Shown here in pieces: positions 5,219-64,000 of a stretch of 64,000 nucleotides of DNA; positions within the stretch are counted from its first letter, which is position 1, and each line of letters begins with the position of its first letter. The notes beneath the pieces were generated by a model. The model saw only the letters and a program-made list of their open reading frames with translations. It was not told where the DNA came from and made no database searches. Made by a program: the position numbers and the translations under genes. The stretch is from Raillietiella orientalis (Eukaryota), in the NCBI GenBank assembly GCA_036172245.1, contig JAYWIR010000053.1:930001-994000 (forward strand), given 5' to 3'.

Positions 5219-6180
5219 GGTTCAGGTGGTTCCGCTTCAAATCCCCAACCTCGAAATTCCAAAGGATCATAAAAATAAATACATGTGCTGATTATGTATA
5301 TTAATCTTCATACTGATTTACATATGGATCTGTAAAGAAATCTATATACAAAGCCATATGTTCATCTACATGTTAATGCATATATTCATCTACATATCAA
5401 GATATATTAATCTTGTATAGAATATACTAATCAATATATCAATCTAAACACTAAGCTACATATTAATATACATACTAATCTATATATGAATGTATGTATT
5501 AATCTGCATAATGATCTCTACATTGATGTATGCATTGATCTACATATGAATCCATATATTAATCCATAAAAAAATCAACAATATGAAGCTGTATTTTCAT
5601 CTATATACTAATGTATATACTTATCTACAAACTAATCTACATATAAATCTGTATACAAATCCATATTAAACTGTATACTAATGGACATATTAATGAATGA
5701 ATTCTTAATCCAGCAATGATCCGCATATTTGTCGGTTTATTTATCAGTCTATTGATTCGCATATAAATCTATACGCTAATCTATATAGGAATTCACATAT
5801 TCGAAATAAACAATATTGGTGTGTAGATTAATATTTGCATTAATAAAGTGGAGTATATTGATATGGTAGATATCATTAGTGCGTAGATGAATATATAGCT
5901 TCATCTACACACTAATCTATCACATTAATGTATATATTAATCTAAATATGAAGCTATACGTTCATTCATACATCAATCTACATATTATTCTACACATCCA
6001 CACATGATTCTATATATTGATCCATGTTTTAATTTGTATATAAATCCATAGATTAATCTACATTTTAATGTACGTGTAAATCTACATACATAAAATAATC
6101 TATATATCCGTGTATATAATAAGAATTTGTAATTGTTTTTTATGATCTTTCGAGACTTCGGCGTTCGGGATTTCGATCGG
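5219..6180. mobile_element. Non-autonomous TIR (MITE/foldback-like) element with an AT-rich interior of degenerate ~12-bp units (AATCTATATATT-like)
   Basis: 5232-5280 (ccgcttcaaatccccaacctcgaaattccaaaggatcataaaaataaat) is an imperfect reverse complement of 6131-6180. The interior is very AT-rich, with recurring atctacatat/atctatatat. Confidence 0.6.
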
Positions 6181-7696: not shown

Positions 7697-9246
7697 GGTT
7701 CAGGCCAGTGCCCACCAAATCTCGTACCATGAAAACTCCGAAAGATCTTAAAATACATACATTAATATATGTATTTATATGTAGATTGATGTGCAGATTA
7801 ATATATATTGTGGAGAGTGTAAAAAATAAATGTGTATGTTTAGTATTATATGTATTGATTTATATATATTTAAATATGAGTTTATTTATCTATATTTATA
7901 TAAATACTAATTTATATATGCTTATATATAGACTAATCTGCATATTTTTATAAAAAGATCAATTTATATACATCTACATACAGACTAATTTATATGTATT
8001 TATATATGGACTAATTTATATGTGGCTTAATTAATTTATATTTATAAAATGACTAACTTGTATATAGTTACATATGGATTAATACTGTATACTTATATAT
8101 AGAAGAGTAAGATAATACATATATATATAGTCATTATTTATATTAACATGATTACTTATACTCTTACTATATAGATTTATATATAGATTGAAAATACGGT
8201 ATGAAGATTATCAACAAAAAATACATATGCCTTTTACGTATGTTACCATATACATAGATTCTATATGGATTAATTTGTACATTAGATAGATTAATGTGCA
8301 AATAGATTGATATAATACATACATTAGCATTGTATATGGATTGATAAGCAAATTCATTTTGAAATGCATATTTATTAATGTAATAAATATATGTGTTTAT
8401 CTTATGTGTTACTATATACGTCAACAGCAATAAGTGTATATGCACTGAATATGTAAACATCGACTTATAAGACTATATATTGGTAACTCCACCAAAATCC
8501 CCAAAATGGAAGTCGCCATTTCCCGAGGAACTTCCGTTGGCTGAGAGTTGGAAACGACGGAAAAAGGAAATACCAAATTTCTTTTTCGCTTTCTCTCATT
8601 CGTTTGCTCCTTTTTTTTCGCTTTTACCTTTTTCTTCTATTTTAAATTTCCATAATGATTTTTTATTTTTTAAGTTCAATACGTTCATATCCATTTCACT
8701 TATGTCCATTTAAGTATACGTAAATGTACACAATAAAGAGATACGTTCATATTTTACAATCTTCATTATTTATATTAGTAACACATAGTAATACATATTA
8801 TCAATTACATTAATGGATACGTACTTTAAAATGAATTTGTACATTAATCCATATATCAATGCACATGACAAGCATATGAATACTTATTTTTAAAATCTTT
8901 ATATTATATATTAATCTATATGCAAATATATATATTAATACAGAATAAACACCTTATTAATTATATCAATAATACGCTTGCTAATAAATGTCAATATATA
9001 TATATATATATATATATATGCTAAAATAATATCGCTATTAATAACCTATGCATGTTGATAAATATTAATAAATCTGTACGTTGAAATAAATTTGTTCATT
9101 AGTGTACATATAAATGTATACATTAATATGCATAATAAGCATATATATACCTGTGCCTTTTTAATCTATTTCATACGTACTAATCCACATATATAAATTT
9201 ATACATTAATATATATATATGTATATCGGAATTTCAAGCCCGAACC
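7697..9246. mobile_element. Second AT-rich TIR-bounded element of the same family as 5219-6180
   Basis: The left end (ggttcagg...caaatctcgtaccatgaaaactccgaaagatcttaaaatac) aligns with 5219-5282. The right end (ggaatttcaagcccgaacc) is a shortened inverted copy. The interior has the same units, largely in reverse orientation (tatgtagatt). Confidence 0.55.
8995..9019. repeat. (TA)n microsatellite
   Basis: About 12 perfect TA units. Confidence 0.95.
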
Positions 9247-40479: not shown

Positions 40480-40780
40480 GCTACTCACCGCATTCAGGGA
40501 AAGTGAAAAAACCAAATACCGCATACCTGCCAAATGTGCCTGCCACCTACCGCATACTGAGAGCTCGTATTTACCACCTATTGTATGTCAAGAACGTGTA
40601 TCTGCCATCTACCGCACACCAGCAAGGCGCACCTAACACCTACCGCATGCCAGGAATGTGTATCTATCCCTTACCGCATACCTACCACCTACCGCATACC
40701 GGCGAAGCGCCCTACTACCTGCCACATGCCGGGAAGGTGTGCCCATTACCTAGAGCATACTGGGTATGTACACCTACGAG
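40480..40780. repeat. Degenerate minisatellite, ~30-31-bp period, core CACCTACCGCATAC
   Basis: A taccgca(t/c)-like core recurs about 9 times at ~30-bp spacing. Confidence 0.8.
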
Positions 40781-46680: not shown

Positions 46681-49600
46681 GTTCGCGCTAGCGTCCTCGG
46701 GAAGAGATGGTGACGGGCCTACATGGAGACCTCAGGAACCGCCGTGGAGCAGGATGCTAGCGAGACGGAAGAAAGACGATAGGCTGCGAGACGGAGAAAC
46801 AAGTCGTGTACGTAGGGGGTAGGTGGAATAGGTTCATTTGCTGTCTTGTGGACCGCTTTCCCCGCTGTTCGAGATACTGATCACCGGGAATATGCAGGAA
46901 TGGATCTTCGGCTGGTCCTCCTCTTCCCGAATGGTTGCGCGCTCCGGCGGCTACTCAGCCAGTTTTCGACTCCTCCATTCCGAGCACGAGAAGGCGCGCT
47001 GCTCTCTCCATCGAAGATGCCGGGTTCGAAGACCCATTTCCAGGACAAGTCCTGGAGCTGCAGCAGGCTGGCGAACGAGCGATGGCTGATGAGCAACAAG
47101 ATGTCCTTCATGAGCTCCCTGTCAAATATCCGCTGGGCTGTCTGAACCCATGAGAACCAACCTCTAGGAGAACCGTGGAGACGGTGGTCAGTAAGCCAGC
47201 ACTGCCGGTCTGTTCGTCAGCCACCCCCTTCTCCGCAGCGGCGCACTCCACTTCCGAGACCCATGGCACTTGCCTACAGGCAAGGCTGGAGGTTTCCTGC
47301 GAAATTTCGGGCAGCGGGAAACCCCCAAGTGGCTGGACTGCGCGCCAGCTCGCTGACGCAACAAGAGTAACCTCTCCTGGGAGACTTGATTGCTAAACCC
47401 TAGAGGAGCTGGAGGTACCCTCGGTGATCGCATAGAACTCGTGCCTCAGGTGGCAGCAGTCCTCGCTGCTGACGTTGCATTGGCCGCGTCGCTACCGCTG
47501 GGCGAGTCGGAGCGTCAGTGCCAACTGAGCCAGGTGTGAAAAGAATAGGAACCTTCCCCGCCTGCTCGAGACGTGAGTTGCCCTGAGGGCATTATGAGAG
47601 CATTTCTCCCTTTCCCAGTGGGCAACCCAGTAAACATTGCGAGAGACCTCTTTGTGTAAAGTGCCTGCTGCCGCCGTCGCAGCGTAGCGCTGTCCACACG
47701 GGGTGTTCGTGTCGAAGAACGATGCCGAGAGGACGGTACGATAGGGGAACCACCACCCTCTTCGCCGCCACCCGGTTCCTTCCGATCTCGGTGAAGTGGA
47801 ACCACCCGCCAAGATACCCTTCTCTCTCCTTCCAATTCAAGCAGAAGGCTTCTTACTTTCATTTTCTAACCCCCTGCGTGGTAACGGTCCAAGCGAGGTG
47901 CAATACGTCTGCCTGCGAAAAGACACGTGTGCTCGTCATTCGCTGCGAGAGATCATGTGCCGCCCGCGAAAGACTTCGTCAACACTCTTTGCTTTATTAC
48001 TTCTTCCTTTAAGGCAAGCGAGGGACAGTCCCAATCCGGCAAGCTGGGAAGTGACGTGCTGCATTGCAGCCAAAAAGAAACTTCTGGGTGCGTGGAAAAC
48101 TCGAGAGATCACGGGCGCTGCGACGCCGTGTCTCACCCCGAGGACTTGTACGCAAGGGCGAGCTGCTCCCATTTTTCTGAAGGACATGAATTGGCTTCAG
48201 TGAAATCCGCCCCCTCAAGTGGCAGGACCTGGCGTTGCTGGTGATGCATGGGGGAATCCCATGCAGAGCGCGCGCCCTCACCAGTGGACACTTCATGTAA
48301 AATTTGGGTAAGCTTGCGGGAGGAGAGGAATCAGACCTCGGGTACGCAGCATTTGGAATGTGTACGAGGAATGATCGCACGTATTGGAACAATCCCAGAG
48401 ATTTCGCTTCGGATTTGATTTCATTAATGAACTGGATTCACTTTCGTAAGGAGACCGGAAAGACAATGGTGGAAATGGCATATAACATTCCTCCCCCGGA
48501 AAAGTCGTGGCGTGGCTTTTATACAAAGTGAATCCATTTCATGGCAATAAAACATGTCTGCGTATTGCTGTGAAGTCTCAGATTTCTTACGCCTTTCATA
48601 ACATGGAAATTCGATTTCATATTGAAGAAACTGCATTTATCTTCCTGAGATTGGAGACAACTTCTCTTTTTGAAACTTATCTTTCCCTTATCGCACGCGC
48701 ATGCCTGAAGTCTCTGCATGAACGATCGGGAACCCGTTTCCCGAAAAAACACATTTCCCTGTTCCCAGCCTTTCCGTCTATTTATGAAGGGCTCTTTTTC
48801 ATCAGAGACTTTCGGGGACGCTTCAGATGCGAGCGAGAGCTTCAGATGCCCTTCTCTATCTCGGGAGTAGGGAGCGTTTCGGATCAGCAATACCAAGTGT
48901 GAAAAATCATCGAAATAGAAGGTTCCCAAATGCCTTGCTCTTGCGTTCCTTCAAGAACTCAGTTGAGATGGAATCGTTTTCACTTCGGAGAATCGTTTTC
49001 ATTTTTTTTAAATCATCCGTGTCAAGACAATACCGTGGAAGCACATTTAGGCTAGATTGCAAGAAATCAGCCCTTCACCGATTCATCTGATTAGTCTCCT
49101 CGGAAGGGTCTTTCTCGTAGCTACAAAGTACCAGCATCTACAAAGGAAGCCAACTATGACACTCAAAACCTTCAAAGTGCACCCTGAAGCATGCCCTTCT
49201 AGAGCACAACACCTCAGAAAGAATGTTATGGAAATTAGGAATACTTTGGTAATCTTTCATCACAGACTTGCGTGTCATAGAAGCATTATATGGTTCTGTG
49301 ACACCTAGGGAGTATTTACCACAGCTACATGGTGCAAATCAAAATAATCATCAGCATTACTATATGATCACCACTTGCGGCACCTCAGTGAGAACTGATC
49401 ATGTGCATCCAGAGCACCACTTTCACTCCCAGTGCTCCACATTTCAGTCAGATATCATTTCCTTCTCCAATCCAAAGAATCTACCTACTAAGAAAACACT
49501 CAACATGTATTTATAAACAAGTATTTGGTTGAAAATCAAAAACATGCACACAATAATAAGATAGAAAACGGCAACCTTTTTAAAGGAAGCGACAAAATAT

Positions 49601-52600
49601 TCCCAGAACTAAAATTACCACCTAAAACAATGATTTAAAAAAACATGAGCATCTTGCAGTTATCATGACACATACAAAATTTTCTGATAGTCATTAGTCA
49701 TCACCTATGCAGAATCACTTGCATGCATACCCCCCTCGTACACAAACTCATGATAATCTAGTCTAATATAGGATGCCCCAAACTTTATTCACTAAGGTTC
49801 AAAGAATAACATTTAGCCTTTATTAGTAAGTTTCTTAAATGTTAAAGATGTCCCAAGAAACATACAAATTGCAAATGCTTCACTCACATTTAAGAGTATC
49901 CATTCAGAACAATCAAATTTTAGAACTGAAGTTTTCCAATTTTTTCTCTTTACTTCATTATGATAAACAATTACCAGGAAACTTTCATTTGATTTTAATC
50001 AATCTTAACAAATATATATATTTATATATCTTTTTGCATAGAAGATATTTTTGCACTTCAAATCTCTGGATTCCCATCTGCTCTTTTCTTATAAAATCTA
50101 TTCAATACTCAATAAATCCAACATCAAACTATGCCAGCTGTTTCTCTCAATTATTTTCCAGCTTCTTGGCTATTTATTTCTGCTATAAAAATCCCACGAA
50201 ACCATCAACACATCATCAAATAAATCTAAATCAGATGGATTTGCAACCATAAAATGTTTCCAACATTTACTCCAAATGCTTAGATTACTTCTTAAGAAAA
50301 TACATACTTTAACAGTTTGCAACATCTTTCACATTCCATTTGCGCCAACTCAAGAGCAGAAGCACAAGGCATTAGCTTTTTAGCTTTCGTATTCCAGATG
50401 AACACTAAGGAAAAGTCAGTATTGCAGTATTTCCACTTTGTATACTGTACATGAACAATGAGTTCATGGCTTTAGCTGCTGGAGGATGTGCTAACACACC
50501 ACATCAAAGCATCTTCTCTCATGAATTCCACAATGAAAATCAATGCATTTACTGTTCGCCATATTTGTTTTCAGCTGACATTTTTACTTACTATGAAACC
50601 ATGTACTTATCTCCACAAATTACCATGTTGCAGTGATTTGTGAATACAGAAAGCATAAGCATTAAGGTAAATAAGAGGTGAATAAGTGAATATATGTTAA
50701 ATACATCAATATTTAACATACGTACCCTTCCAGCACACTACCAACATCGATAAATGGTACACAGTCAAGAGACAACAATTAAGTAAATTAACCAAACTTT
50801 TCAACATATCATTTCAGAATTACAATTCAAGCATGGCCTAGCATGAAATGCATAAATCACTGGCATTTTCCTCTATTATACTCATCTTAATTATCCTTTT
50901 GATGTATAAATATGCAAGTCAAGAATTTTCCCATAGCCAGCAATTACAAGAAACTCAAATATGGATGAAATGTGAATCACATCCCATCTAGGATAAGGAA
51001 GCAATAGCATCAATATACTTATTTGTTGTCTTAAATTAGCATCACAACAATTCTCCTTTTATGAAATAGCAGAAAATTTACTGAGAGCATAATAAAATTT
51101 TAAGAAAGGACAACCAACTCTGAAATGACTGATGAGACTATTCCAATAGTGCATGTTGTAAGGACATCATTAGTGTCACTGTAAAGTATGGAAGAAACAT
51201 AAAAAAATTCCTCCAAAAAACAACCAAAGTAATTCATGTTCTTGAGAATCTTCATGTTCTTGAGTCATGCTCCTTAATATAGACATTCTGATTATAGAAT
51301 GAACATATGTAGACTTAAAACCAGTTCTGAACAATTAAATTTGAGGAAAACAAAAGTATTCTGTAATATACAGTTCTTTAATTTATTTGATTTTGAAAAT
51401 TATGTAATATAACGCTGCTTTTGCTTGGCATGAATGATGAACAGCTTCCAGATGCACTTTCATTTTTATGGACATTTCATTCCTGCTTTTGCAATCATTC
51501 TGAACTGTTGCCATTATTTTAATAATAAATGCAGTTGCTGACAACATTGCCGTATTCTAATTATTCACCAAAAAACACACTTTCATACCACTTTTGCAGC
51601 CTGTAAACATACATCCTAAATGCTATATCTATCTTTAGACATCACTCACTTTGAAATTAATCTTATCAAAACCAATATAAACATTTGGAACCTGCACAGG
51701 ATTAAAGTAATGGTCTTTAAGGCCATTCCTTCTTTAAAGGTATTGGTAGAAAATATGTTCGTATTTTCTGTTGGTTTGCTATATTATTTATTCCTCTTGC
51801 TAAAATGACCAATGTCTAATACTTCATGGAAAACAGAAGGCCAAGAAATTCTCTGGCACATTGCGTGCTTCAAATTCATTTCATGTTACGAGTATTACTT
51901 CACTATTGCTCACAATTTCTACTGCAAACTACCCAAATTTGAAACACTAAAATTGCTTTGCATTACCACAGCACTGATAGTAACCAGGTTTCTACTAACA
52001 ACTGCCTGTTAAAACAATTCCCCAGTTATTTGAGGCTCCAGTGTCTTGATGAAGTAACAACCAATTCCACCCTAATTTGAGGGTTTTCAATCCGGCAAGC
52101 AATGGGATAATTGAAGTCAGTAAACTAATTCGAAAACTACAGATATGGATGAAAACAGAACAAAACAAATTAAACCAGAATTATCCACTTTTCATATGTT
52201 CCTTCCTTATCAGAGATTTAGCGCCAGAGGGAATGCCTCTTCCATGAATTCTGACTTCCGAACGAGTTTCCGCATCTTGGTTGGTATCATGAAATTCCTT
52301 CTCTTTGACTTCTGCCTTTTTTTAATATACATATTCATTCAAACAGCAGTCCCTTTGATTCTACATGTGGTACTTGCTGATGGATTTGAAGCAAAGCACT
52401 TTTTCCATGTTGTCCAAAATGGGTGGCTTGCACATGGTTACCTGAGACGCACTGCCTCCTTCCTACACTGAAATATTCCATATCCATACGAACAAGATTC
52501 ACCAACTCTTAATTAGTTTAGCTGATCATACTGGGTGTAGTTGGTTCCCTTGAATCCCTTCCTTCCAGTTTCCTTCCCAAGTAGAAAGAGCCCTTTCTCA

Positions 52601-55600
52601 TGCCAGATTTTCCAGTCTTCTTTCATTTACACACTCTTCAGCTGATAACAAGGAGCAATTGGACAAATTTCCAGAGGATTTGCTCATCCTTTTTGGAGTT
52701 TGCATTTCTCCAGGACTGGTGCCACTACTAGACTCTGGTTGCCAGGCATTGAGGAGAAATTGCTTTCTGTTAGCCTCAGTTCGCCAAGACCTGTATTCTA
52801 TATTCTCCTGGTCTAATGGTTTCTGCAGTCTTTTGCTTTTGTAGGCCCTACAGCCCTGCGAAAGTAGCATCACTATGTTTGGCATAATGAAATGCTGAGT
52901 GCTAAGTATCCTTGCTTACCATATTTACTGCAGCAACCTTTCATGTAAGATGCAACCAAAGGCTGAGAGATCCTCACAAGTGTCTGGCTATTACCCGTAG
53001 ATTGCCTGTTGGAAGAAGGTGGGAGTGGTTCGTTTGTTAAGGTGTGGCAGGGAGTTTTGGAGCTTTGAAGAAACTACGACACCAAATATGCCTTCCTGAA
53101 CAGATGTATAACTGTGAGAGTGCTGTCTTTGACATGCCTAAGTATGCTGCCATTCAAGTTGATGTCTCAATCCACATAGGTCCTTAGGAGAGCAACGCCA
53201 TCAGTGTAAACGGGAAAACTATTCACCAAAGGCTCGATCGCCTAACGGATGAAGTTCGGGTCCTTTTGATTTAAAGAAAAATTAATTTCCCTCCTTGTGC
53301 CATTATAAATGAATTCTTATTTCAAATGAGATCATTCCAACCCCAGGTCCAGGAATTGAATCATGGTCTCTACATTCCTGGTTTCCCTTTTCAATTGAGA
53401 CTTTTTTCACTTCCCCCATGTAGTCTGCTTAAGTGGTCTACGCATAAGCTGCTGGTTTTGGTGATTTGAGCACTGTAACTTAGAACACCACCGGATTGAA
53501 CGCTGCCAAAGCTGCCATCGACACGATTCTTCGTGTGCAGTGTGGACCACTGCTGACAGCAATTCCACTGTACACTTTACACTACATCGTATTGTCACGG
53601 AGACCTCATCAGTTACGAGACTGCCATTTCTGATAACATCGGTTCAACATATGTAAACAAACCTTTTAGAAACCAAAGCAAAACTCGAAATCCAGCGATT
53701 CCAAAGTTGGCTTTGTTAAAATCACCGCTCATTTCTCCTTAATTAAAGTGTATTCCGAGTAAAACTCCAGTCAGTTGATAGATTCATATCTCGTTTCATT
53801 ATGCTGAAGCAAATCGTTCTCAGCTCAGGGATAATTCAACGATTCTGTGAATTACTTGGATTTCCAGTGTTGCGATTTCGTAAAGTTTACTTTCCCTGAG
53901 GGTTACTAATAATCCATTTCGAAATGCAATAAAAAAAATGTTTGTGGCTTCAGTTGGCCATACAAAGAGGTAGACAGTCATGAAGCATTTCTGAAAATTT
54001 GGCTAAATAGGATTGCACATCGGAATCCCACATCTCTTGGCTAACTGTTTCTTGCTCTTTTGCCTTATTAATGGCTTAAGCGTGCAGTTCAAAAAAGTCT
54101 CAGAAAAAAAAGGAAAATCCATCACTTTATACGCATTTCGTGAATCACAGCTTGCAAACGCTTTCCTGCATATAATTCATCTTGAAAATCTCTGCTGTCT
54201 GTCGGTAACTCGGACTTGAAAGAGGGCTACAGTTTCTCCTTCTTACTTTTGACAATCTTTTAATTTTTCATATTTATGTATACAAACACATTTATTATAA
54301 GATTATGAACAACGAAGATTACGAATAGATGCACCGTTTTCGGTTAGTTTTCTAATAATCTGGTAATAGATTATTACTACTTTAATTCCTACTTGAATTT
54401 GTTGTATTCTGTATCTAATAATCTGACTGCTTTTTCCTACGGTAGTCAAGGACACTTGTCATTGCATAAAATAGGCATTTATTCATGAATTTCTTTTAAA
54501 AAAAATTCTCCATGTTCCGCTTGCTAATGGTTCGTCTGCATATTATTATGTATTCTGAAATTCACACCTGAGGGGAATTTTAATACCAAAATTCTTGTGC
54601 CTGTTCACGGTTTCCTGGGTAACAACTGCTGCATCTGGAACAAGGAGACCCTCTTGTGCCTGGTTTGCAATGCTGAGAAAAATTTGAATTCCCAATTTGA
54701 AAGCAGTGAATCACCACAGTATGTTCATCTTCTACAACTGCTTGTTCGTGTCGAATATTCTCCAAGGGGATTTCAGTTTGCTTTCAAACCATGCTAAAAT
54801 GAAAATGGTGGTATTCTTCTGTGTGTATTCGTTTTCTATATAATTTTATTGTACACTTCCTTGTCCAAAGGACAATCTCACTCTTTCCTATGGATCGAGA
54901 TGTCCTGGAACTGCCATGCTCTTAACACACTTTATCACAGGAATATCAGCTTTTGAGCTTTCATTATTTATTTTAAAAAATATTAAACAGCTATCAGTTT
55001 GCATTCCATTCTTCTTGATTATCTTAACTTTGACTGCTGCACATGCAGTGGCCTGCAAAGAGAAGACACTTCTGGAGCATCTTGGATCGAACAGCTTCTG
55101 ACGCCTGAATTTCATGAAATGGTATCAGTGGAATTCGCGTTCCTGGGTTTGATCCCTGCTACTTTAAACGCAAGGCGCCGAGAGCGTCCCTGCACTTTCT
55201 CTTCCTTTTTTTCTTTGAATTTGATCTTTTCCTATTACTTTCAAATTTGTTGACAATACCCACTTCGTGATGACTGCATTCGTTTCACATTGCTTTCTGG
55301 TCCAATGAGATGAGGGATCGCAAAACGACTACTCAATAATTATGCACCCTGCTTTTCTTTGACCTCCAACTTCACTCCTGCGGATATGGTTTCATCTGAG
55401 TTTCTGCTTCTGAACAACAGATGAAAACGTGGAAAGCTGAGTTCTTTAACAAACTCTCTAAAGCAAATGTTTAGAATCCATCGTTTCTACTTCTTGTTGG
55501 CCTTATTTTCTATGGCTCGAAAGCAATAAAGAATTTACGAAGCAAGAGAACCTGCAGGCCAAGTTCTGTGCCTCTTCCAGCTTCCAGAAGCTCCTTCATC

Positions 55601-55629: not shown

Positions 55630-58600
55630 ACTTTGATTCGTAGATTTCTCAAGAGAAAAAAAATTGCATTCCCTGTTTTCTCGTACGCTCGAAGAAATAC
55701 TGAACGAACAGCCCCTGCTTGCAGTCCCAGTGCTCCTTCACCACTCGGACGGACGACGAACCCTGGACGGAAAAGAACGAGCTCTGGCTTCTTTACATTC
55801 CTCGAGACCTGTCTGGTACCGTCCTCTCGCCGTAATCATTTTCCTGGCGAGCGAGCGCGGAAGACAGCCCAAGACAGGCAAGGTAAATGGGAGCGCACCG
55901 ACCACTCCTTCTCCCGGCCACGTATAACAGCATCTGTGAAAAACAAGCAGCCTTATTCTCTTCCTCCATGCGTCATCTCCTGCATTTTGGATCGACTGCA
56001 CTGCAGGGCACGCGTGTTCCAGTTCCGTTTCCGCTCTTCACATCGACAGGAAGCTGCTCCCGTTGCCTCGCTGTTGCTCCATGCGACACCACACGTGCCC
56101 TGTCTGCACGCTGCTAGCATCGCGCGTTCCTCCTCAGCATTCCAGCGGCATAAGCAGATCGGGATCTGCCCCTCGAGGGACTATAGAGGATTCATCAAAG
56201 CGCCTCCGTGAGTCCGCGATTGAAAGAGCTTCGGCTTCCTGCTGTGCGAACACGTCAGCATGACTCTTCGGACCTCGGATGTCGGCAACAAAGGGGCGAG
56301 GACTTCGTCTTGGTCTCCTGGAATCCGATGCGAGATCCTGCCTTTCTTCCAGCTACTCTTGGACGACCTGCCACGGCTGCTCCTCCTTCCTGCAACGGGC
56401 AGAACCAGGGACCCGTTCTGGCACGCGGAGCTTTTCTTTCCCAAGAACCCGCATTCCGTCCCGTCTGTCGGAAGGCTCACCAGACGCCCAGCGAGAGGAT
56501 CTGCCTGGACCGGCAGGGAAGCTGACCCAGCAGCAAATCAAGCAGACGCGCCAATCTTGCCACTTTGTTTGGCGTGCTGTCTGCTCGAGTCGACGCCCTG
56601 ATGGGCACGCGGCAGGGAAGCCAGCTCGAAGACCGCATCGCGCCTTCCGCTGGCATCCGCAGTTCGCATCCATCTGACCCGGTGGCCTGCTCATGGTGCA
56701 GCTCGCACAGCGCGCCTCCCACGCCGCGCACTCGTTCGTCACCCGCCCAGGGCGACGGCTCCCCGATTCCTGCCGCTTCGCCCCACCCGGAAAGAGCGGG
56801 ATCTCATCCGGGTGACTGCCCAGGTTGGAACGGGAACACGGAAGTGCGCGAGAGGGACTCGCGTCGGTCTTTTTTCGTCGCAGGAGGAAACGACTGTTGC
56901 TGGCAGTTCCCTTCCCACTTCTTTCCACGGACGAATGGTACGTCTCGATCTTTCGGATACGGAACGCCACGTGGCCAGAGACTGAGCGGCAGCCTATCTT
57001 CGGCATCCCCTCCCCCCTTTCCATCTGCTCATCCTGGAGGCGGCGAATCCCCGCGGATCCCTTCTGGTGCCTGCGCGAACCATCGCAAGTCGGAACTGAA
57101 GAACCTCCCGACCGTCACTGCGCTGCATTCCCTTCCTGGAAGGGAGCGAAGCCGCTTCCGCTTGGAAATCCAGGAAATCTCCCTTCCAGGAATCCAAAAA
57201 AATTGGACGCCTTGTAGAGTCCCTCCCTTCGAGCCGAATGTGGGACGGCAGCCGAAAGTGTGACCCTTTCTCTACCGCGGTGCGAATCTTCCTTTCCTGC
57301 TCCCGGGACACCCCACGCGCCCGGATCTCTCGCCAGGAGCGTGGGGTCGTCTCGTCGAAGGAAGGGCTTTCATTCGACAAAGAATTCCGCGCTCCCGCGG
57401 CTCTGCAGGTGCCGGTAGCCGGTTGCTTAGAAACCAGTTCCCATCAAAATGTGGCAACCCTACAATCTTTGCATCCGCCGACGGATGCGTTTTCTCATCT
57501 GGGAAGAAAGATCGCAAGTAGCGCTGGAATCGACAAGCGAAGTAAAAAACCTGTCGGATCGCTTCTCGGTACTCTTTGGATTCGGCTGCTGCACCACGCT
57601 TTGGAATGCCTCATGCTTCAACAACCTTTTAGCGTTCGCAAGAGTTACCATGAAGGAACATGCAAAGATTGCGAGGTGAAATTTCGGCTCTCGATTGGGT
57701 CGCTTGTGGCAAAAGTTCACGTGAACTGTAGTCCAAATAGATTCGAGAAAGCATCTGGAGCTATCCTCAAGAAATCCGCGAGTACGTGAGTGGTTGATTC
57801 TATTCATGCGTGCTTTTCTTGCATGCAACTGGGCATCTGATCCTTGCGAGCGATAGTGACAGGAAAGTCTATGAAGAGCAGCGACTGCAGCTGGAAAACC
57901 ACCTGAATTTAGTGACAGTCAAATTCGTTGAGTCGGTCCAAGGTGCCTTGCTTCCTGCATCGAAAACTAAATGGGCTGTCCGTCTAGACCTAGTGAAAGA
58001 TAGTCCCCAAGGATGGCATCAGCTACTATGTGGAGCCGGAGAACGATCTCAATGATGCAGAAGAAGAGTAAAGGAAAGAGGCTGCCTTTCTGAAACGCAA
58101 GAAAAGGAAAAAAGTCAAAACAATCCCCTATTGTCTTCTTCCTGTCATTTGGAACGAGCCTTAAGATCACTTTTTGAAAAATCAACGGGATTTGGAACCA
58201 GCAAAAGCGAAGGCAGATCACGTGGATCATCAGGTATGACGATATCGTGTGTCTGCCCAAGATTCACGAGACCGACCTGCCTCGAACTCGAGAGACACCA
58301 GACGCCTAGCGGTTCGTAAGCGGAGGTCATGAGAGGAAGGTGGTGGCGATCCTCGTGAAGAACATCGCGCACCATCCTCGAGACGTTTTCTTTGTAGTTT
58401 GGTATCAGATCATCGGATTCAGATCCGGAAGTGTCCACTACTTCCTGGTGAAGATGTGCGGAAGCTGCCCAGACCCTCCTGCTCATCAAGGTCGCACCAA
58501 AGGACATATATATGCCATTTTAACGTTCTGGGCGACGTCATCCACTCCAAAGATGCCCCGGAAGGATGGCGTGCGTTTTACTCGAAGTGCTGGGACCAGA

Positions 58601-61100
58601 ACGAGAGGCCGACGTCTTCCGAAACATCAAGTGAGGAATCGGCGCGCTGGAGAAGAACATCTTCAAGGATGCGCTCTAAATGCAGTACGAAGACCAAGTT
58701 TTGCACACGTAGGGAGGAATCGTAAAAGCTTTCCAGAAGCACTGAACTTCCTACTTTCCACAAGATCTCTGCCCAGCAGAGCACAGGGTCATCATGCACC
58801 AGCTGTACAGAAAATTGATCCAGCTGCAGCAAGCTTGGCTCGACGATGAAATTTCCATGGAAAAAGTGAAGAGCGCGCTCGCAGGTCTACGCAAGGACGT
58901 GGCGGCAGGCCTCGATCGTGTGTCCATCTCCCACTATCAAAGGTACCCATACGCCTGCCTACGTCGGTTCCAGGAACTCACACTATGCATCCAGGAAGAA
59001 CACCGGCTCCCGGCTTTGTTTACCGAAGCAGGATGCGACTATTGCCCAAGACAAGCGAACTGACGAAAGTCATCCTGTAGCGGCCAATCTACGTTCTCCA
59101 CTCAGATGCCAAGAGATCTGGTATAGCCGCTTGAGTGCGCTTTCACCAGTGCTCGTCTCTCCAACCTAGACGTGCGCGTTGCCAGGATGCCTCGATGAGA
59201 AGTGTGCCTAGCAAGCCCCGGTTACAGCCGGCATATTGGCGATGGCCTGGTTCTGGGCTTCCCGTATATAGAGAAGACCTTCGACACTGTAGACCATAGG
59301 ATACTGCTCAAGATACTGAAGAAATTGGGCTTCCAGAGATACTTCAGCCAGCAAGCGGAGAGAATACTCGAGGAGCAGTGCTTCGGGATCTCAACGAACG
59401 GATCAGACACAGGCACAATGCGGATAGGGAGGGGAATTTGCCAAGGAGACGCCCTCAGTTTGATACTGTTCGTCATATGCCTGGAGGCTGTGTCGTCGCT
59501 GGTAGAGACAGAGGCGGTCGCCTTCGAGGAATTTCCAATGATGAATGCAGACTGACTCATCTAGGGTAAACAGACGATCTTCTCTTCTTCCTCAAGGACG
59601 AGAGGATCAGCTGCGTTCCTCGGTGTAATCAATTCTGTGGGAAAGTCCTTAAGATCAGTGCCCAGATGTTGCAACTCTTATTCACCAGGATCCTGGTTTT
59701 CTGCACATTAAGGGTGAAGGGAGTTCGAGTGGCGAATGGAGTCAATTATCTAAGAATCCACATCAACGACATCTCAACCGCGCACATTTTGTGGAAAGAA
59801 ATCCCAGAGAAAGCAGGAGAAGCATCAGCAAAGTACATCCAGGACGACTTTGGCATGGAGCAAGCGCCAACTTGCGGAATGGCGTTCGATTTCCCAAGGT
59901 GCTCTATGGAGCAACCTTCAGCCCAATGCACAAGACTCGGATGGAAGTGGAACCGTTGCAGAGAAAGCTTCTGTAGAGACACTGTAAACCGGGGTGAAGC
60001 TTGTATCATCCTCAAGGTGATAGAATGAGGTCTCTGGCACACTCTATGGAAATCATGTACCCTGGTAACTCCTGAATCTTACTCAGCGATTGGGGCAGGT
60101 GGCCATTTGCTGTGCACAGCACCCACTCGAGGTTGCTGAGCGGCTCCAGTGGCTTGAAGCAATCACAGGCCAAACAGAAGTGGGTGAACATCGATCCCAC
60201 GTGGGAAAGAAAAGACACTGGTGAAAATTTACCAAGTCAAAATGGCGCCTAGGAGCACAGAGCCATGAGAGGAAGAACTGGCCTCGGTAATGCCTTGCTC
60301 CCTTCCCATTCCACGGAAAACGTGGTATGGATAAGCGAAAATCCTAGGCTGAAAATCCGGGATTACAAGCAGTTCGTTAACAGTGGCAACTTTTGTCAGA
60401 TGCGACAGTTCAGATACATCCAGCAGGTGAAAGGAAGATACAACCACAAGAGGCATGAGCTTTGGAAGAATCTTACATCTTGTGCGTGGATGCTGATCAC
60501 GAAAGCTAACATTCGGGATGAAATCTTGAATGCACACAAGGACAACTCCCTCGCAATGTGAACCTGCGAGCGGTTGGAGCGACCGTTTGGAGGAGTGTCC
60601 ACGATGCCCTGCTTGTCCTTTACCACGAAGCCGTCCTGAGAGGTTCCAGGACAAAACATCAGAAGGAAAATCTGCAAGATGAGATCTGCGTGGCGTTTTT
60701 TTGGAGACAGGGAAACCCAGCTCCACGTCCTCAGCTCCCTGACGTTGCAATGATATTGGAAGGCACTCAAGGCAATGACAGATCTGCAGAGCAGCACGAG
60801 GATGACGATCCCGGCAGGACTGTTTAAAAGGAGACGGAAATGTTTCTCGATAAATCCCACGGCCAGAACAAAAGTCGCTCACTTGATCACGAGCATCGTG
60901 ATCACAAGATGGAAGCAACAGAAAAATGCAGCTCCAGCAATGAAAATAGTGAATGAAGAGCTCCTGAAAAAGAGATAGGACTTAAAAGCTGCGCAAGAAT
61001 CCAAGCCTAAACAAAACTGAAGAAAACTTCCACATGCGAGGGAACTCCAGTGTCCCCTAGTGCAAACCGTCACACCAAAGCCAACCAATATAAAGTGTAA
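55630..61100 (+). mobile_element. Near full-length but inactivated L1/Tx1-type LINE (ORF1 relic, APE, RT, C-terminal Cys motif)
   Basis: RT motifs appear in order: SALAGLRKDVAAGLDRV (58870), RPIYVLHSDAK (59082), IEKTFDTVDHRILLKILKKLGF (59268), GRGICQGDALSLILFVICLE (59426), HLG*TDDLL (59558, YADD) and VNYLRI. CPRC lies near 60595. APE and ORF1 relics at 55650-57900 are weaker. Confidence 0.85.
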
Positions 61101-62630
61101 TATGAAGTGACCCGAGTGACGCCAACTCGCCGTCGCTCCAAATTATTACGTGCATTGCCGGTTTCTCTCTTGCACCGTAAACATTTCGCCTTCAAGTAAA
61201 ACCACTTCACGGATATGCGGAAAATTGTGACCTTCGGACGAGCATACGGATGAGGAAGCTGTATTCTATTGCTGTCAGGTAGACAAGACTGCAGCGATGT
61301 CCAGCAAAAGATCGTGACGAGCGCAAATTCGATTTTGCTTCACTTTTCTCTGGAGTCGTCTGCAAATTAAGTGAGCACATCATTTCGGGTGCTTACGATT
61401 TCAGAGATATCTGGCAAACAGGCAGCTTTGTCTTACTCTGAATTCTCTTCAGGGCAGCCTTGTTCAGGGGGAAGACTCCGTTGAATGGGATGTTTCCAAT
61501 GAGCGCTGACGTTGGATTGTAATGAAAACAGAAGACGGGAACGGATACAACTTTTTAAAGTTTTGAAGATACCACAACCCATGTACGAAAGAAGAGTTTT
61601 CTTCCCCATCTTGAAAAGAATAAAGGGTTGGAAGCAGCATGCAATCCAAGTTGCTCTTTGATTTGCTTCGCTGCGTCCTTATTGCTGACGCCAATATATG
61701 ACGAGCTTACTTGGAACCCATCGGCTCGTTTTGGGCACGTTTGGTTTGCGTTGACACCGATGAGGTGCACTTAAAACCACGAAGTTGGTTTTCTTTGCAC
61801 GGATTTTCTGACCAAAGTTAGGTGTAAAGGCAGGCTGCTGAGCTGTTCTCCATAGAAAAAGTGTTTCCATCGTTGGGGCATCAGTAGGTGAAAGAATACC
61901 TACTGCACACCCCGAGGAACACTTGGAGTCTATTGCCCATGCCTCGGAATGCGTCGTGCTTGGGGCAAAATCCCCAATCTTGTCACTGATGTTCGCAAAA
62001 TACAGCGAATACATGTTCTATTTTGTGTGTTGCGTGTTAATCGCTACCTAACTCCCTTATCCCATTGTCTTTCAAGGGGATTCCCATGTCGTTAGCAGAG
62101 TCAGCGATGGGAAAGCTAAACGACGGAATAGAGGGGGGAAAGCAAAATCTAAAGCGTGTTCTGAAGCTGCAAATTCATTGGAAGATGTGGAAGAAAAATT
62201 CATATTTCGTAATGCAGAGGAACTCTGCTGCCAGGCAGCAAGAACCTGGCACGTTGCGTATACAGTATCTTCCTGAAGTCTCGAGTAGGGTTACTCGAGG
62301 GCAGTTACTGAGTCGTTCAGTGAAAACGCCCTGGTGCAGGACACATGGGAGGATTCATAAAACCAGAGCTCGTTTCGATAACTGAATTGCGCGGCTGCTA
62401 GATGAAAAAAAAAAGAAGCTGACACTTCATCTTCACTTATCCAAAGCTGATCTTCCTTAATATCTCTGTTATAACGAAGGATCAATTTCAACATCGGCTG
62501 AATGAGTGCAAAAGATATGATAAATACGAGCATGAACAAACGAAAATGGGCTTGCGAACGGTTATTTCTACTGATGTGCTTTCCTTATTTCGTATTCCAA
62601 GGTGACACGAAAAGAACTAAGAATCGGAAA

Positions 62631-63588
62631 TTACCCAATGCACCATGAGAAATGAACAGCATACGAGCATATTCGACATGGTCTCATTTTAATAGCTAGG
62701 CAACAGCCCTGGTATTTGGAATCGAAGATGATTCCATTCTTCAGTGATTCTATGAAGCCGTATTGCACGTGCCCCACATCATCTTTTGTGAAGTCGACGA
62801 CAGTAATTCGCTCTCCGTTGTATAGGTGGGCTGCATCAGCCTTCCTACAGGAGTGCATGTATATTGCGTCCTTTTTCAGAAATAAAAACGGGGCCATGGT
62901 TGTTTTGCCAGTGTTGCCACAGGTATCGTGACACCAGTGGATTTTTCGTGGATTGGCTTTGCGGCGGATGATGTCCACAATATCCATTTGCCGCTGTTTG
63001 AGTTGGAGCTTTGCCATGGGGTTAGGGTGTTGTCTGGTCCTTGACAGCCGAAAGCACACTTTTATGAAATTTACATTTTTCGAGTAAAACTGTGTGTGAT
63101 TTTTTAAAATGTAGAGCTCGTCTGCTCCGTTTTCGATGAGTTGCAGGATCTGAAAGAGGAGAATTTGATTTTATCGTCATCGGTTTTTGGTAACGAACCT
63201 GTTCTTGGTATGATTTTGGTTCGGTGCTTTCGTTGAGAGATCCGTGTGTCCAAGGATTCCTATCTTCTTTACTGCAGTACCGAATGTCGCTCTGTGGCGT
63301 GCCTTCTGCTCGCTCCAAGTGAGTCTTATGGAATGGTTTGCGGTGCGAACCGGGCAAAGTTCTCGGTCCCTTGAGTTGCCTGGAGCCTTGCAAGTGAGGC
63401 GTCCCGGTCTCAGCTGGTTCGCGTCCAATGCAGGCGGAGCAGCACTTCAGTCGGCACCATCGCTTGATGTCTTTGGATTCTTGCTCGGTGCAATTGCAGA
63501 AAGTGATGCACCAATTGAAGTTAAGTGCGTAAGGCACAGTGACGTACGCGAAATTCACTGAAGGTAAGACTGCGGTGTGGAGGTTCAT
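62631..63588 (-). CDS. rep: CRESS-DNA-virus-like replication initiator Rep (HUH endonuclease + SF3 helicase), endogenous; predicted spliced join(63588..63199,63149..62631), 302 aa
   Basis: Motif I WCITFCN, motif II TPHLQG, motif III HLERAEGTPQSDIRYCSKE, Walker A GNTGKTT, Walker B ITVVDF, and YGFIESLKNGIIFDSKY. Removing a 49-nt GT-AG intron joins the two ORF-track frames without a stop. Helicase motif C is not recognisable. Confidence 0.92.
63150..63198 (-). other. Predicted 49-nt phase-0 spliceosomal intron in rep
   Basis: Donor CAG|GTTCGT, branch-like ATGAC, polypyrimidine tract and acceptor TTCTCCTCTTTCAG|ATC. Removal restores the frame exactly (130 codons plus exon 2). Confidence 0.8.
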
Positions 63589-63593
63589 GGTGG

Positions 63594-63601
63594 TTTATAT
63601 A
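63594..63601 (-). promoter_or_regulatory. TATA box of rep
   Basis: The minus strand reads TATATAAA between the origin hairpin and rep. Confidence 0.65.
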
Positions 63602-63631
63602 CTGGCTAACTGCGCAGTATTTTGTGTTAGC

Positions 63632-63659
63632 GCGATCTGGTCAGTATTACCCACATTGC
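63632..63659 (+). promoter_or_regulatory. Rolling-circle origin stem-loop with nonanucleotide CAGTATTAC (63642-63650)
   Basis: GCGATCTGG-TCAGTATTAC-CCACATTGC forms a 9-bp stem with one mismatch and one G-T pair. The loop fits NANTATTAC and lies about 55 bp from the rep start. Confidence 0.85.
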
Positions 63660-64000
63660 ACAGTAATCATCCGACACCGTGGGAAGCTGTTATGTAAGCA
63701 TTTTCATTTTGAGTGCCTGGTTTTTTTTATCCGCAGTCGTGGAGGACTTAGGGATGCGCAAAAGCGATATGCTTTCCAGCTCAAGTGTCTGGTTTCACCC
63801 GACCTCGTGGAAGGCTAGTGTAGTCGGGTGGGCATGGCCCACCAGCTCAGAGTTGAGAGGGGTGGGGGGATCGAAAAATCCTCAGCAAGCTTTCTAGAAG
63901 CCGAACGGTGGCGCTACGTCGTTTTGTCTCTCGAAAAACGAAGGCATCGAGTCATTCGAAATCGTGGAAGCGTCGTCGACTGACCAGATTGTGGTCCGGT

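Follow-up and report, generated by a model that had tools for sequence, protein, structure and literature searches.

A probable endogenous CRESS virus element with a truncated Rep gene and a degraded origin in a Raillietiella orientalis contig

Endogenous circovirus-like and nanovirus-like Rep genes occur, according to Liu et al. 2011 (PMC3198968), in a wide range of eukaryotes, among them nematodes, and the copies termed 'nanovirus-like' combine a circovirus-like N-terminus with a different C-terminus. Endogenous elements of DNA viruses of the CRESS type (circular, Rep-encoding, single-stranded) also serve for host assignment, as several reports describe (Kinsella et al. 2020, PMC7493932; PMC9615429; PMC10193959). 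Here, we analyze a 64,000-nucleotide stretch of Raillietiella orientalis DNA (contig JAYWIR010000053.1, positions 930,001 to 994,000, forward strand; hereafter the window), which carries a Rep gene and an adjoining origin-like sequence near its right end. The locus is probably an endogenous viral element, that is, a DNA-level insertion of the Rep–origin part, and perhaps more, of an ambisense CRESS virus of an unclassified lineage, which is now decaying.

In two respects, the locus resembles the endogenous Reps described in PMC3198968. Like them, it would be a CRESS Rep in a eukaryotic chromosome, and it clusters with, but outside, established virus families; like the 'nanovirus-like' copies it joins a circovirus-like N-terminal domain to a C-terminal domain of another type. 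In addition, the window copy keeps the origin nonanucleotide, adjoining repeats, and a putative intron; neither 'stem-loop' nor 'intron' is found as a word in the text of PMC3198968.

Two minus-strand open reading frames (ORFs) with overlapping ranges, 63022-63588 (188 aa) and 62631-63059 (142 aa), span the Rep gene. As two exons, they are predicted to encode a Cressdnaviricota Rep composed of an HUH endonuclease and a superfamily 3 (SF3) helicase. The donor site of exon 1 reads CAG/GTTCGT, with the intron running from 63198, and the acceptor of exon 2 is a pyrimidine tract followed by TTTCAG/, with the intron running to 63150. Removal of the 49-nt interval restores the reading frame and the colinearity with relatives, from which we infer a spliceosomal-type intron. 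In particular, the end of exon 1 (..KSYQEQ) abuts the start of exon 2 (ILQLIENG..) without a gap on the relatives' block 'G.R.DL..L...I..G' (alignment A2; P0001). A preliminary description of this DNA had proposed a spliced protein of 302 aa, and the same product is obtained here (130 + 172 = 302 codons through a 49-nt GT..AG intron). In metagenome relatives (L019-L024 and L027-L031), the Rep is divided among two or three frames that short gaps separate, which suggests introns or frameshifts; the positions of these gaps differ from that of the window intron.

Exon 1 passes the Pfam Viral_Rep profile (PF02407; 30.6 bits, cutoff 26, E = 4e-7). It aligns with Rep endonuclease domains of the PDB, best with 7kii_A (E = 1.4e-7) and 2hw0_A (3.4e-6), more weakly with 6h8o_A (0.0055) and 2hwt_A (0.013), and the search also matches the circovirus Rep 7lar. 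The three endonuclease motifs of rolling-circle replication that had been proposed are all present, and T29 of motif I, nearly invariant among 30 relatives, is retained. Compared with Circoviridae Reps (7lar, 2hw0, and 7kii), the endonuclease thus aligns at E values of 1e-5 to 1e-7 and shares all three motifs, but the helicase departs from the circovirus type.

Exon 2, which would supply that helicase, matches no PDB Rep chain at E ≤ 10, the circovirus hexamer 7lar included, and the Pfam RNA_helicase profile scores 14.4 bits on exon 2 alone, under its cutoff of 21.5. When 1.84 billion representatives are searched exhaustively with phmmer, the matches number 2511 at E ≤ 1e-3, 423 at E ≤ 1e-10, and none at E ≤ 1e-30; Viral_Rep is found at E ≤ 0.001 in 17 of the 20 best exon 2 homologues scanned. 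In the ESM Atlas, the clusters that lie nearest bear the label Cressdnaviricota (score 0.95). The Walker A (GNTGKT) and Walker B (VVDF) motifs stand where they had been reported. An AlphaFold2 model of exon 2 has a mean pLDDT (predicted local distance difference test) of 83.5, with the last 12 residues below 50. No fold match to this model is obtained at E ≤ 0.001 with Foldseek, the top hit being a weak one to a redondovirus Rep hexamer (E = 0.065), and VIA returns generic AAA+ domains with Z at most 6.7.

Judged from these comparisons, the helicase appears to be of the nanovirid/alphasatellite type, in a virus lineage that is unclassified. The Rep of L011, a 1.1-kb circle with a single Rep ORF, is 36% identical to exon 2 over 80 aa (E = 1e-15). 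Together with the lack of PDB Rep matches, this bears out the earlier remark that the helicase resembles nanovirus/alphasatellite-like and unclassified CRESS Reps more than those of circoviruses; it is of the type found in Rep-only circles of 1.0-1.4 kb and in unclassified CRESS viruses. Helitrons encode a RepHel protein with a Pif1-like superfamily 1 helicase. A Helitron was considered and rejected, since the helicase homologues are Viral_Rep and RNA_helicase (SF3) proteins and the protein has 302 aa.

The helicase is firmly judged, by alignment, to be truncated at its C-terminus. The relatives extend ~25-30 residues beyond the Rep stop, and their tail holds a nearly invariant Asn (motif C region) and an S.DR block; in the alignment, these nearly invariant N, S, D, and R residues have no counterpart ahead of the TAA at 62633-62631. 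Contrary to what the preliminary description had implied, the Rep is therefore not intact: it ends before the conserved C-terminal helicase block. When the stop is written as X in a MAFFT alignment, it falls in the Asn column, and the next 20 codons lie opposite the relatives' tail. However, a tblastn alignment runs through the stop with only one of the 150 relatives (P0102), and an alternative BLAST alignment has AVHF in place of A-NF. With a single read-through relative and a competing alignment, homology of the sequence beyond the stop is weak. Other nearly invariant positions are also changed (R in place of W in LRxWQ, K in place of R122, and D in place of S143). The composition of the protein is unusual: Cys accounts for 17 of the 302 residues (5.6%), more than in any of 177 relatives (mean 1.9%, maximum 4.2%), and the His content is exceeded by just 2 of the 177.

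Next to the Rep gene, AGTATTAC occurs at 63643-63650, one of two copies in the 64 kb with both strands counted (0.33 expected), and this copy places the nonamer CAGTATTAC on the plus strand at 63642-63650. The second AGTATTAC of the window is at 51891, inside an AT-rich block. An origin close to Rep had been noted, and CAGTATTAC indeed agrees with the CRESS consensus NAGTATTAC and adjoins rep. The same nonamer is present in relatives L001, L002, L003, L007, and L012, and it occurs in the literature, apparently in several papers on invertebrate CRESS viruses.

In contrast, the hairpin described around the nonamer does not hold up as a stable stem. The arms GCGCGATCTGG and CCACATTGCAC form 8 Watson-Crick pairs and 1 G-T pair with 2 mismatches; the fold energy is -1.2 kcal/mol (z +0.79), nearly unstable, and 154 of 200 shuffled sequences fold at least equally well. 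The 106-nt origin region as a whole gives a z of 0.28. Perfect stems of 7-11 bp surround the nonamer in all nine relatives displayed. In the two relatives that could be folded whole, the stems have energies of -10.3 kcal/mol (L001, z -2.2) and -11.1 kcal/mol (L007, z -5.9). The degraded stem and the truncated helicase are lesions incompatible with autonomous replication, and the description of Rep and origin as kept together, in the sense of a working module, was overstated.

The same lesions bear on whether the sequence is a contaminant or an assembly chimera, in which a free CRESS virus would have been misjoined to a host contig. CRESS genomes are frequent sequencing contaminants, as stated in PMC12877143, and the element lies near the window end. 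However, a virus cannot replicate unless its hairpin is stable and its helicase complete, and both are defective here, and a near-identical sequence was found neither in viral nor in metagenome collections. We regard a contaminant or chimera as very improbable.

The strand of the nonamer, opposite to that of Rep, was compared across relatives. With profile scans, 13 viral contigs of 1.0-3.4 kb and 27-44% identity were obtained, along with 20 metagenome loci whose identity does not exceed 44%. An exact AGTATTAC is present as a single copy in 9 of the 13 viral contigs, in 8 of these 9 on the strand opposite to Rep; three further contigs have, on the Rep strand, a nonamer that spans their junction or lies close to it. 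The arrangements are of three kinds: the nonamer is on the Rep strand (L005, L009, L011, and L012), at the Rep 3' side (L001, L002, L007, and L008), or upstream of the Rep start on the opposite strand with a diverging capsid ORF (L003, L006, L010, and L013). In the last kind, the distance between the nonamer and the Rep start is ~30-50 nt in L003, L006, and L010, and in L013 the nonamer lies within the first codons of the called ORF.

The window locus has the layout of this last kind. The four IMG/VR genomes concerned (L003, L006, L010, and L013) are uncultivated ambisense CRESS genomes of ~2.0-2.3 kb whose helicases are 28-36% identical to that of the window, and they share with it a nonamer (C/T)AGTATTAC that precedes the Rep ATG and lies on the other strand, in their case with a diverging capsid gene. 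They differ in having perfect stems and complete, unspliced Reps (checked in L006), whereas in the window the stem is degraded, the Rep is truncated and has a putative intron, and a capsid gene is not visible. The highest helicase identities are to uncultivated CRESS genomes of ~3.0-3.4 kb with Reps of 433-499 aa (P0156, P0004, L001, and L002). The nonamer CAGTATTAC is also that of L001 and L002, and in L001 the right arm, CCACACCC, resembles CCACATTGCAC of the window; in these two, however, the stem-loop is at the Rep 3' side within the ORF tail, while that of the window is upstream of Rep. Specifically, in L001 (1205-1255) and in L002 (near 1376), which are circular and 3.2-3.4 kb long, the CAGTATTAC stem-loop is inside the 3' tail of a Rep ORF of 453-499 aa, on the opposite strand.

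As an alternative, the preliminary description had raised a capsid-less rolling-circle element. The locus would then be one copy of a mobile or multi-copy element that persists without a capsid gene, either an episome similar to alphasatellites or a transposon built on Rep. For fungi, transposons derived from viral Reps have been reported (PMC3198968), and a capsid is not detected in the window. The locus shares its helicase signature with the Rep-only circles of 1.0-1.4 kb (L009, L011, and L012), and L012 also contains CAGTATTAC. From their N-terminal sequences and sizes, we take these three circles to be similar to Nanoviridae DNA-R or Alphasatellitidae. Yet all three have the nonamer on the Rep strand and one gene per circle, and they form a clade of their own away from the window sequence. 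The Nanoviridae/Alphasatellitidae layout, a single-gene circle with Rep on the nonamer strand, is thus not that of the window locus, where the nonamer is opposite to Rep as in the ambisense, capsid-encoding relatives. In addition, the window contains no second copy, the repeat analysis of the origin region reveals no terminal repeats, the stem is weak, and the helicase is truncated. An element of this kind is therefore very unlikely.

Around the nonamer, CAGTAWW heptamers are clustered: of 25 matches in the 64 kb, 4 fall within 70 nt, where ~0.03 would be expected. The heptamers and the repeats next to them are candidate iteron-like Rep-binding repeats or a partial duplication of the origin. 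They would also come into play if the module were still partly active, with a spliced transcript giving a truncated Rep that keeps an intact HUH nuclease recognizing the CAGTAWW repeats and CAGTATTAC, so that the locus could be nicked, excised, or amplified as a capsid-less circle, or could interfere with incoming related viruses. We consider such residual activity highly improbable; were it real, a Rep/origin pair would have been domesticated together in an invertebrate genome.

The TATA box that had been noted upstream of Rep is present as the sequence TATATAAA. It ends 5 nt from the ATG, too near to serve as the usual -30 TATA box of any transcript containing that ATG. TATA-like boxes directly before the Rep ATG are also found in relatives L003 and L010. 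Elsewhere in the window, AT-rich tandem arrays at 5422-5682 and 7853-8021 (periods 12, 26, 30, and 36 nt) contain most of the TATATAAA matches.

The Rep has no near-identical relative, as had been supposed. Of the ordinary Reps found, P0156 (470 aa, on a 3.2-kb contig) comes closest, with identities of 53% across 93 aa of the helicase core and 31% across 89 aa of the endonuclease; P0004 reaches 46% in the helicase. The genome of P0156 itself was not found among the viral contigs. Exact-peptide scans yielded no near-identical sequence in IMG/VR or the JGI metagenomes, and word-index searches with single exons gave no matches. Alignments A1 and A2 being too diverse for pattern scans, smaller alignments were used (from A2 for viral contigs, from A3 for metagenomes). 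The phage collection gave one weak match, to a Pinkberry virus Rep (31.9%, E = 7e-7), which is not informative. The source contigs of the relatives are 1.0-4.2 kb long.

The best-scoring representative, P0003, owes its score to a helicase that is present twice in tandem, and it lacks an endonuclease domain. These tandem Rep helicase cores of P0003 (354 aa) are ~90% alike by eye, and the protein may be a rearranged or endogenous Rep derivative. P0174 (473 aa, Viral_Rep) has a longest contig of 3.4 Mb, compared with 1.2-4.2 kb for other matches, and is probably a chromosomally integrated CRESS Rep. In L021, L024, and L031, two Rep copies are ~3.1-3.2 kb apart, which resembles concatemer assemblies.

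A quick maximum-likelihood tree was built from the helicase columns of 103 rows, comprising matches P0004-P0074 and P0153-P0179 of at least 230 aa and 10 locus Reps; shorter matches and P0003 were excluded. The window sequence falls in a poorly resolved basal group without a supported sister, and its terminal branch has a length of 2.1, compared with a median of 0.74.

That the element is endogenous would follow from its lesions and from the 62 kb of non-viral sequence to its left; on the right, it runs off the window. When 150 relatives are compared with the window by tblastn, all 222 high-scoring segment pairs lie within 62.5-63.5 kb, and no other viral match is found in the 62 kb of contiguous sequence left of Rep. 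Several observations weigh against a decaying endogenous copy. Some 350-400 nt separate it from the end of the window, and neither side shows a defined host junction. A divergent lineage that still exists, and not decay, could explain the long branch and the unusual composition. Its ratio of observed to expected CpG (0.94) shows no contrast with the flanks (window, 0.87). Both exons are free of stops and frameshifts, although a long-neutral copy would probably carry more lesions, and in an alignment with 30 relatives exon 1 retains all the invariant columns E57, H65, Q67, Y104, and K107. With open exons and intact nuclease residues, the copy would be either young or constrained for part of its history. 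CpG depletion was rejected as a clock, since the element does not differ from its flanks; we take the value of the window to be unlike that of vertebrates.

The conserved residues could also be explained if the locus were a co-opted host gene, that is, a spliced Rep in which an intact HUH nuclease and a shortened ATPase domain serve a cellular or antiviral function and viral replication no more. Besides the open exons, the catalytic residues of the nuclease, and the preserved Walker A and Walker B motifs, the good splice signals and the ACCACCATG start context after an AT-rich box would suit such a gene, and conserved, expressed endogenous Reps are reported by Liu et al. (PMC3198968). On the other hand, the origin-like DNA that is still there, the missing conserved C-terminus, and the extreme Cys and His contents agree with drift equally well, and the last 12 residues are modelled at pLDDT < 50. 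Overall, co-option appears unlikely, and an endogenous virus copy in decay remains the probable explanation.

Such a copy could have arisen as follows. As long as the virus was free, its Rep would have bound the repeats beside the stem-loop through the N-terminal HUH nuclease, nicked the CAGTATTAC loop on the capsid-sense strand, and remained linked to the DNA via Tyr104, and the C-terminal SF3 helicase would have driven rolling-circle replication. The donor genome would have been ambisense, with the Rep and capsid genes diverging from the origin; in that case, any capsid gene would lie to the right of the origin, beyond the window. A DNA copy of part or all of this small circular single-stranded DNA virus (Cressdnaviricota) would then have been inserted in a eukaryotic chromosome, the replicative form having undergone illegitimate recombination. 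The retention of the intron and of the untranscribed origin argues for entry as DNA and not by mRNA retroposition, and retroposition from mRNA mediated by a long interspersed nuclear element (LINE) was rejected for that reason. Free of selection for replication, the copy would have lost its stem pairing, its frame would have been shortened before the last helicase block, and its protein would have drifted. Most likely, the element now neither replicates nor moves.

Table 1. Sequence features of the Rep–origin locus and of its surroundings (window coordinates).
Feature	Position	Strand	Basis or remark
Rep exon 1, HUH rolling-circle endonuclease domain, 130 aa	63199..63588	-	ORF translation, Pfam, PDB, alignment
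Motif I CITFCN	63493-63510	-	degenerate form of FTLNN
Motif II PHLQG	63385-63399	-	H65, Q67 kept
Motif III YCSKE	63265-63279	-	Y104, K107 kept
Putative intron, 49 nt, GT..AG	63150..63198	-	sequence and colinearity with relatives
Rep exon 2, linker and SF3-type helicase core, 172 aa	62634..63149	-	phmmer, alignment, AlphaFold2
Walker A GNTGKT	62901-62918	-	G78, G81, K82 invariant in relatives, present
Walker B ITVVDF	62790-62807	-	D119 invariant in relatives, present
In-frame TAA closing the Rep ORF	62631..62633	-	before relatives' conserved C-terminal block (motif C region, LSxDRW-like block)
20 more same-frame codons, then TAG (62570-62568); possible C-terminal remnant, weak evidence	62568..62630	-	tblastn, MAFFT
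Nonanucleotide CAGTATTAC, origin nick-site motif	63642..63650	+	opposite strand to Rep, 54 nt upstream of ATG
Degraded origin stem-loop, loop T+CAGTATTAC	arms 63630-63640 / 63651-63661	+	fold energy
TATATAAA, TATA-like box	63594..63601	-	ends 5 nt upstream of Rep ATG
Four CAGTAWW heptamers	63598-63604; 63615-63621, 63642-63648, 63661-63667	- (first); + (others)	cluster within 63598..63667
17-nt imperfect direct repeat, left arm and CAGTATT	63605-63621 / 63632-63648		
6-bp hairpin, loop contains CAGTATTTT	63605-63610 / 63626-63631		
Decayed reverse-transcriptase fragment, flanking retroelement outside the viral element	59199..59552	+	RVT_1 26.2 bits, E 7.6e-6, below 29.6 cutoff
Open frame, basic, without ATG	63857..64000	+	runs off window end

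No similarity to the capsid ORFs of 10 relatives is detected anywhere in the window, where scattered matches have E ≥ 0.08. The open frame at 63857-64000 holds 11 Lys or Arg in its last 31 residues, which places it in the top 1.4% of stop-free 31-aa windows, and it may be a decayed capsid N-terminus; this frame, too, has no similarity to the capsids of the 10 relatives. To the left of Rep, the plus-strand ORF at 62041-62382 was modelled with AlphaFold2 as a possible capsid C-terminus and gave a single long helix at low confidence (pLDDT 62.5).

The window contains 303 stop-to-stop ORFs of at least 90 aa, and Pfam scans covered the 301 of these that lie outside Rep (28 + 150 + 123). A Pfam family, RVT_1, is found in one of them, and 21 further short plus-strand ORFs at 57.2-62.6 kb have none. 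For the reverse-transcriptase fragment, the nearest Atlas clusters are eukaryotic RVT_1, most commonly from Nematoda among only 3-4 members with a known phylum. Taken with the 49-nt intron ending in TTTCAG, these clusters are a weak pointer, from the sequence alone, to a nematode as host. Medium-sized plus-strand ORFs run from 58300 to 60800 around the fragment and probably belong to one frameshifted retroelement without long terminal repeats, of which only the reverse-transcriptase core is recognizable. The earlier picture of DNA rich in transposable elements, with LINEs around the Rep, is thus only weakly borne out: one RVT_1 fragment is there, but it scores below the cutoff and is the single case among the 301 ORFs. 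The region 58-64 kb has no repeat elsewhere in the window by self-similarity, and no tRNA and no Rfam match is present in the window. In the AT-rich block at 49000-55500, the GC fraction is 0.32-0.41 and the CpG ratio falls to 0.22 at 50-52 kb; outside this block, the GC fraction is ~0.5 and the CpG ratio ~0.87. At 40605-40760, two copies of a 79-nt C/A-rich unit are in tandem with 74% matches.

Endogenous CRESS Reps are already well documented, and the window copy is a divergent, unusually complete example, not a new kind. It reveals no new mechanism. An endogenous Rep is evidence, direct and from the genome, of a past infection of the host or its germline by a CRESS lineage that only environmental contigs had revealed, and host assignment via such elements is an accepted route, as set out in PMC7493932 and PMC9615429. 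The preserved origin and the spliceosomal-type intron, if correctly recognized, indicate DNA-level integration and replication in a eukaryotic nucleus. The layout of the donor genome, ambisense with the nonamer on the capsid strand, would be readable without a living representative. The element is of use for mapping host ranges and, should orthologues exist, for dating, and it gives the classification of Reps a divergent reference.

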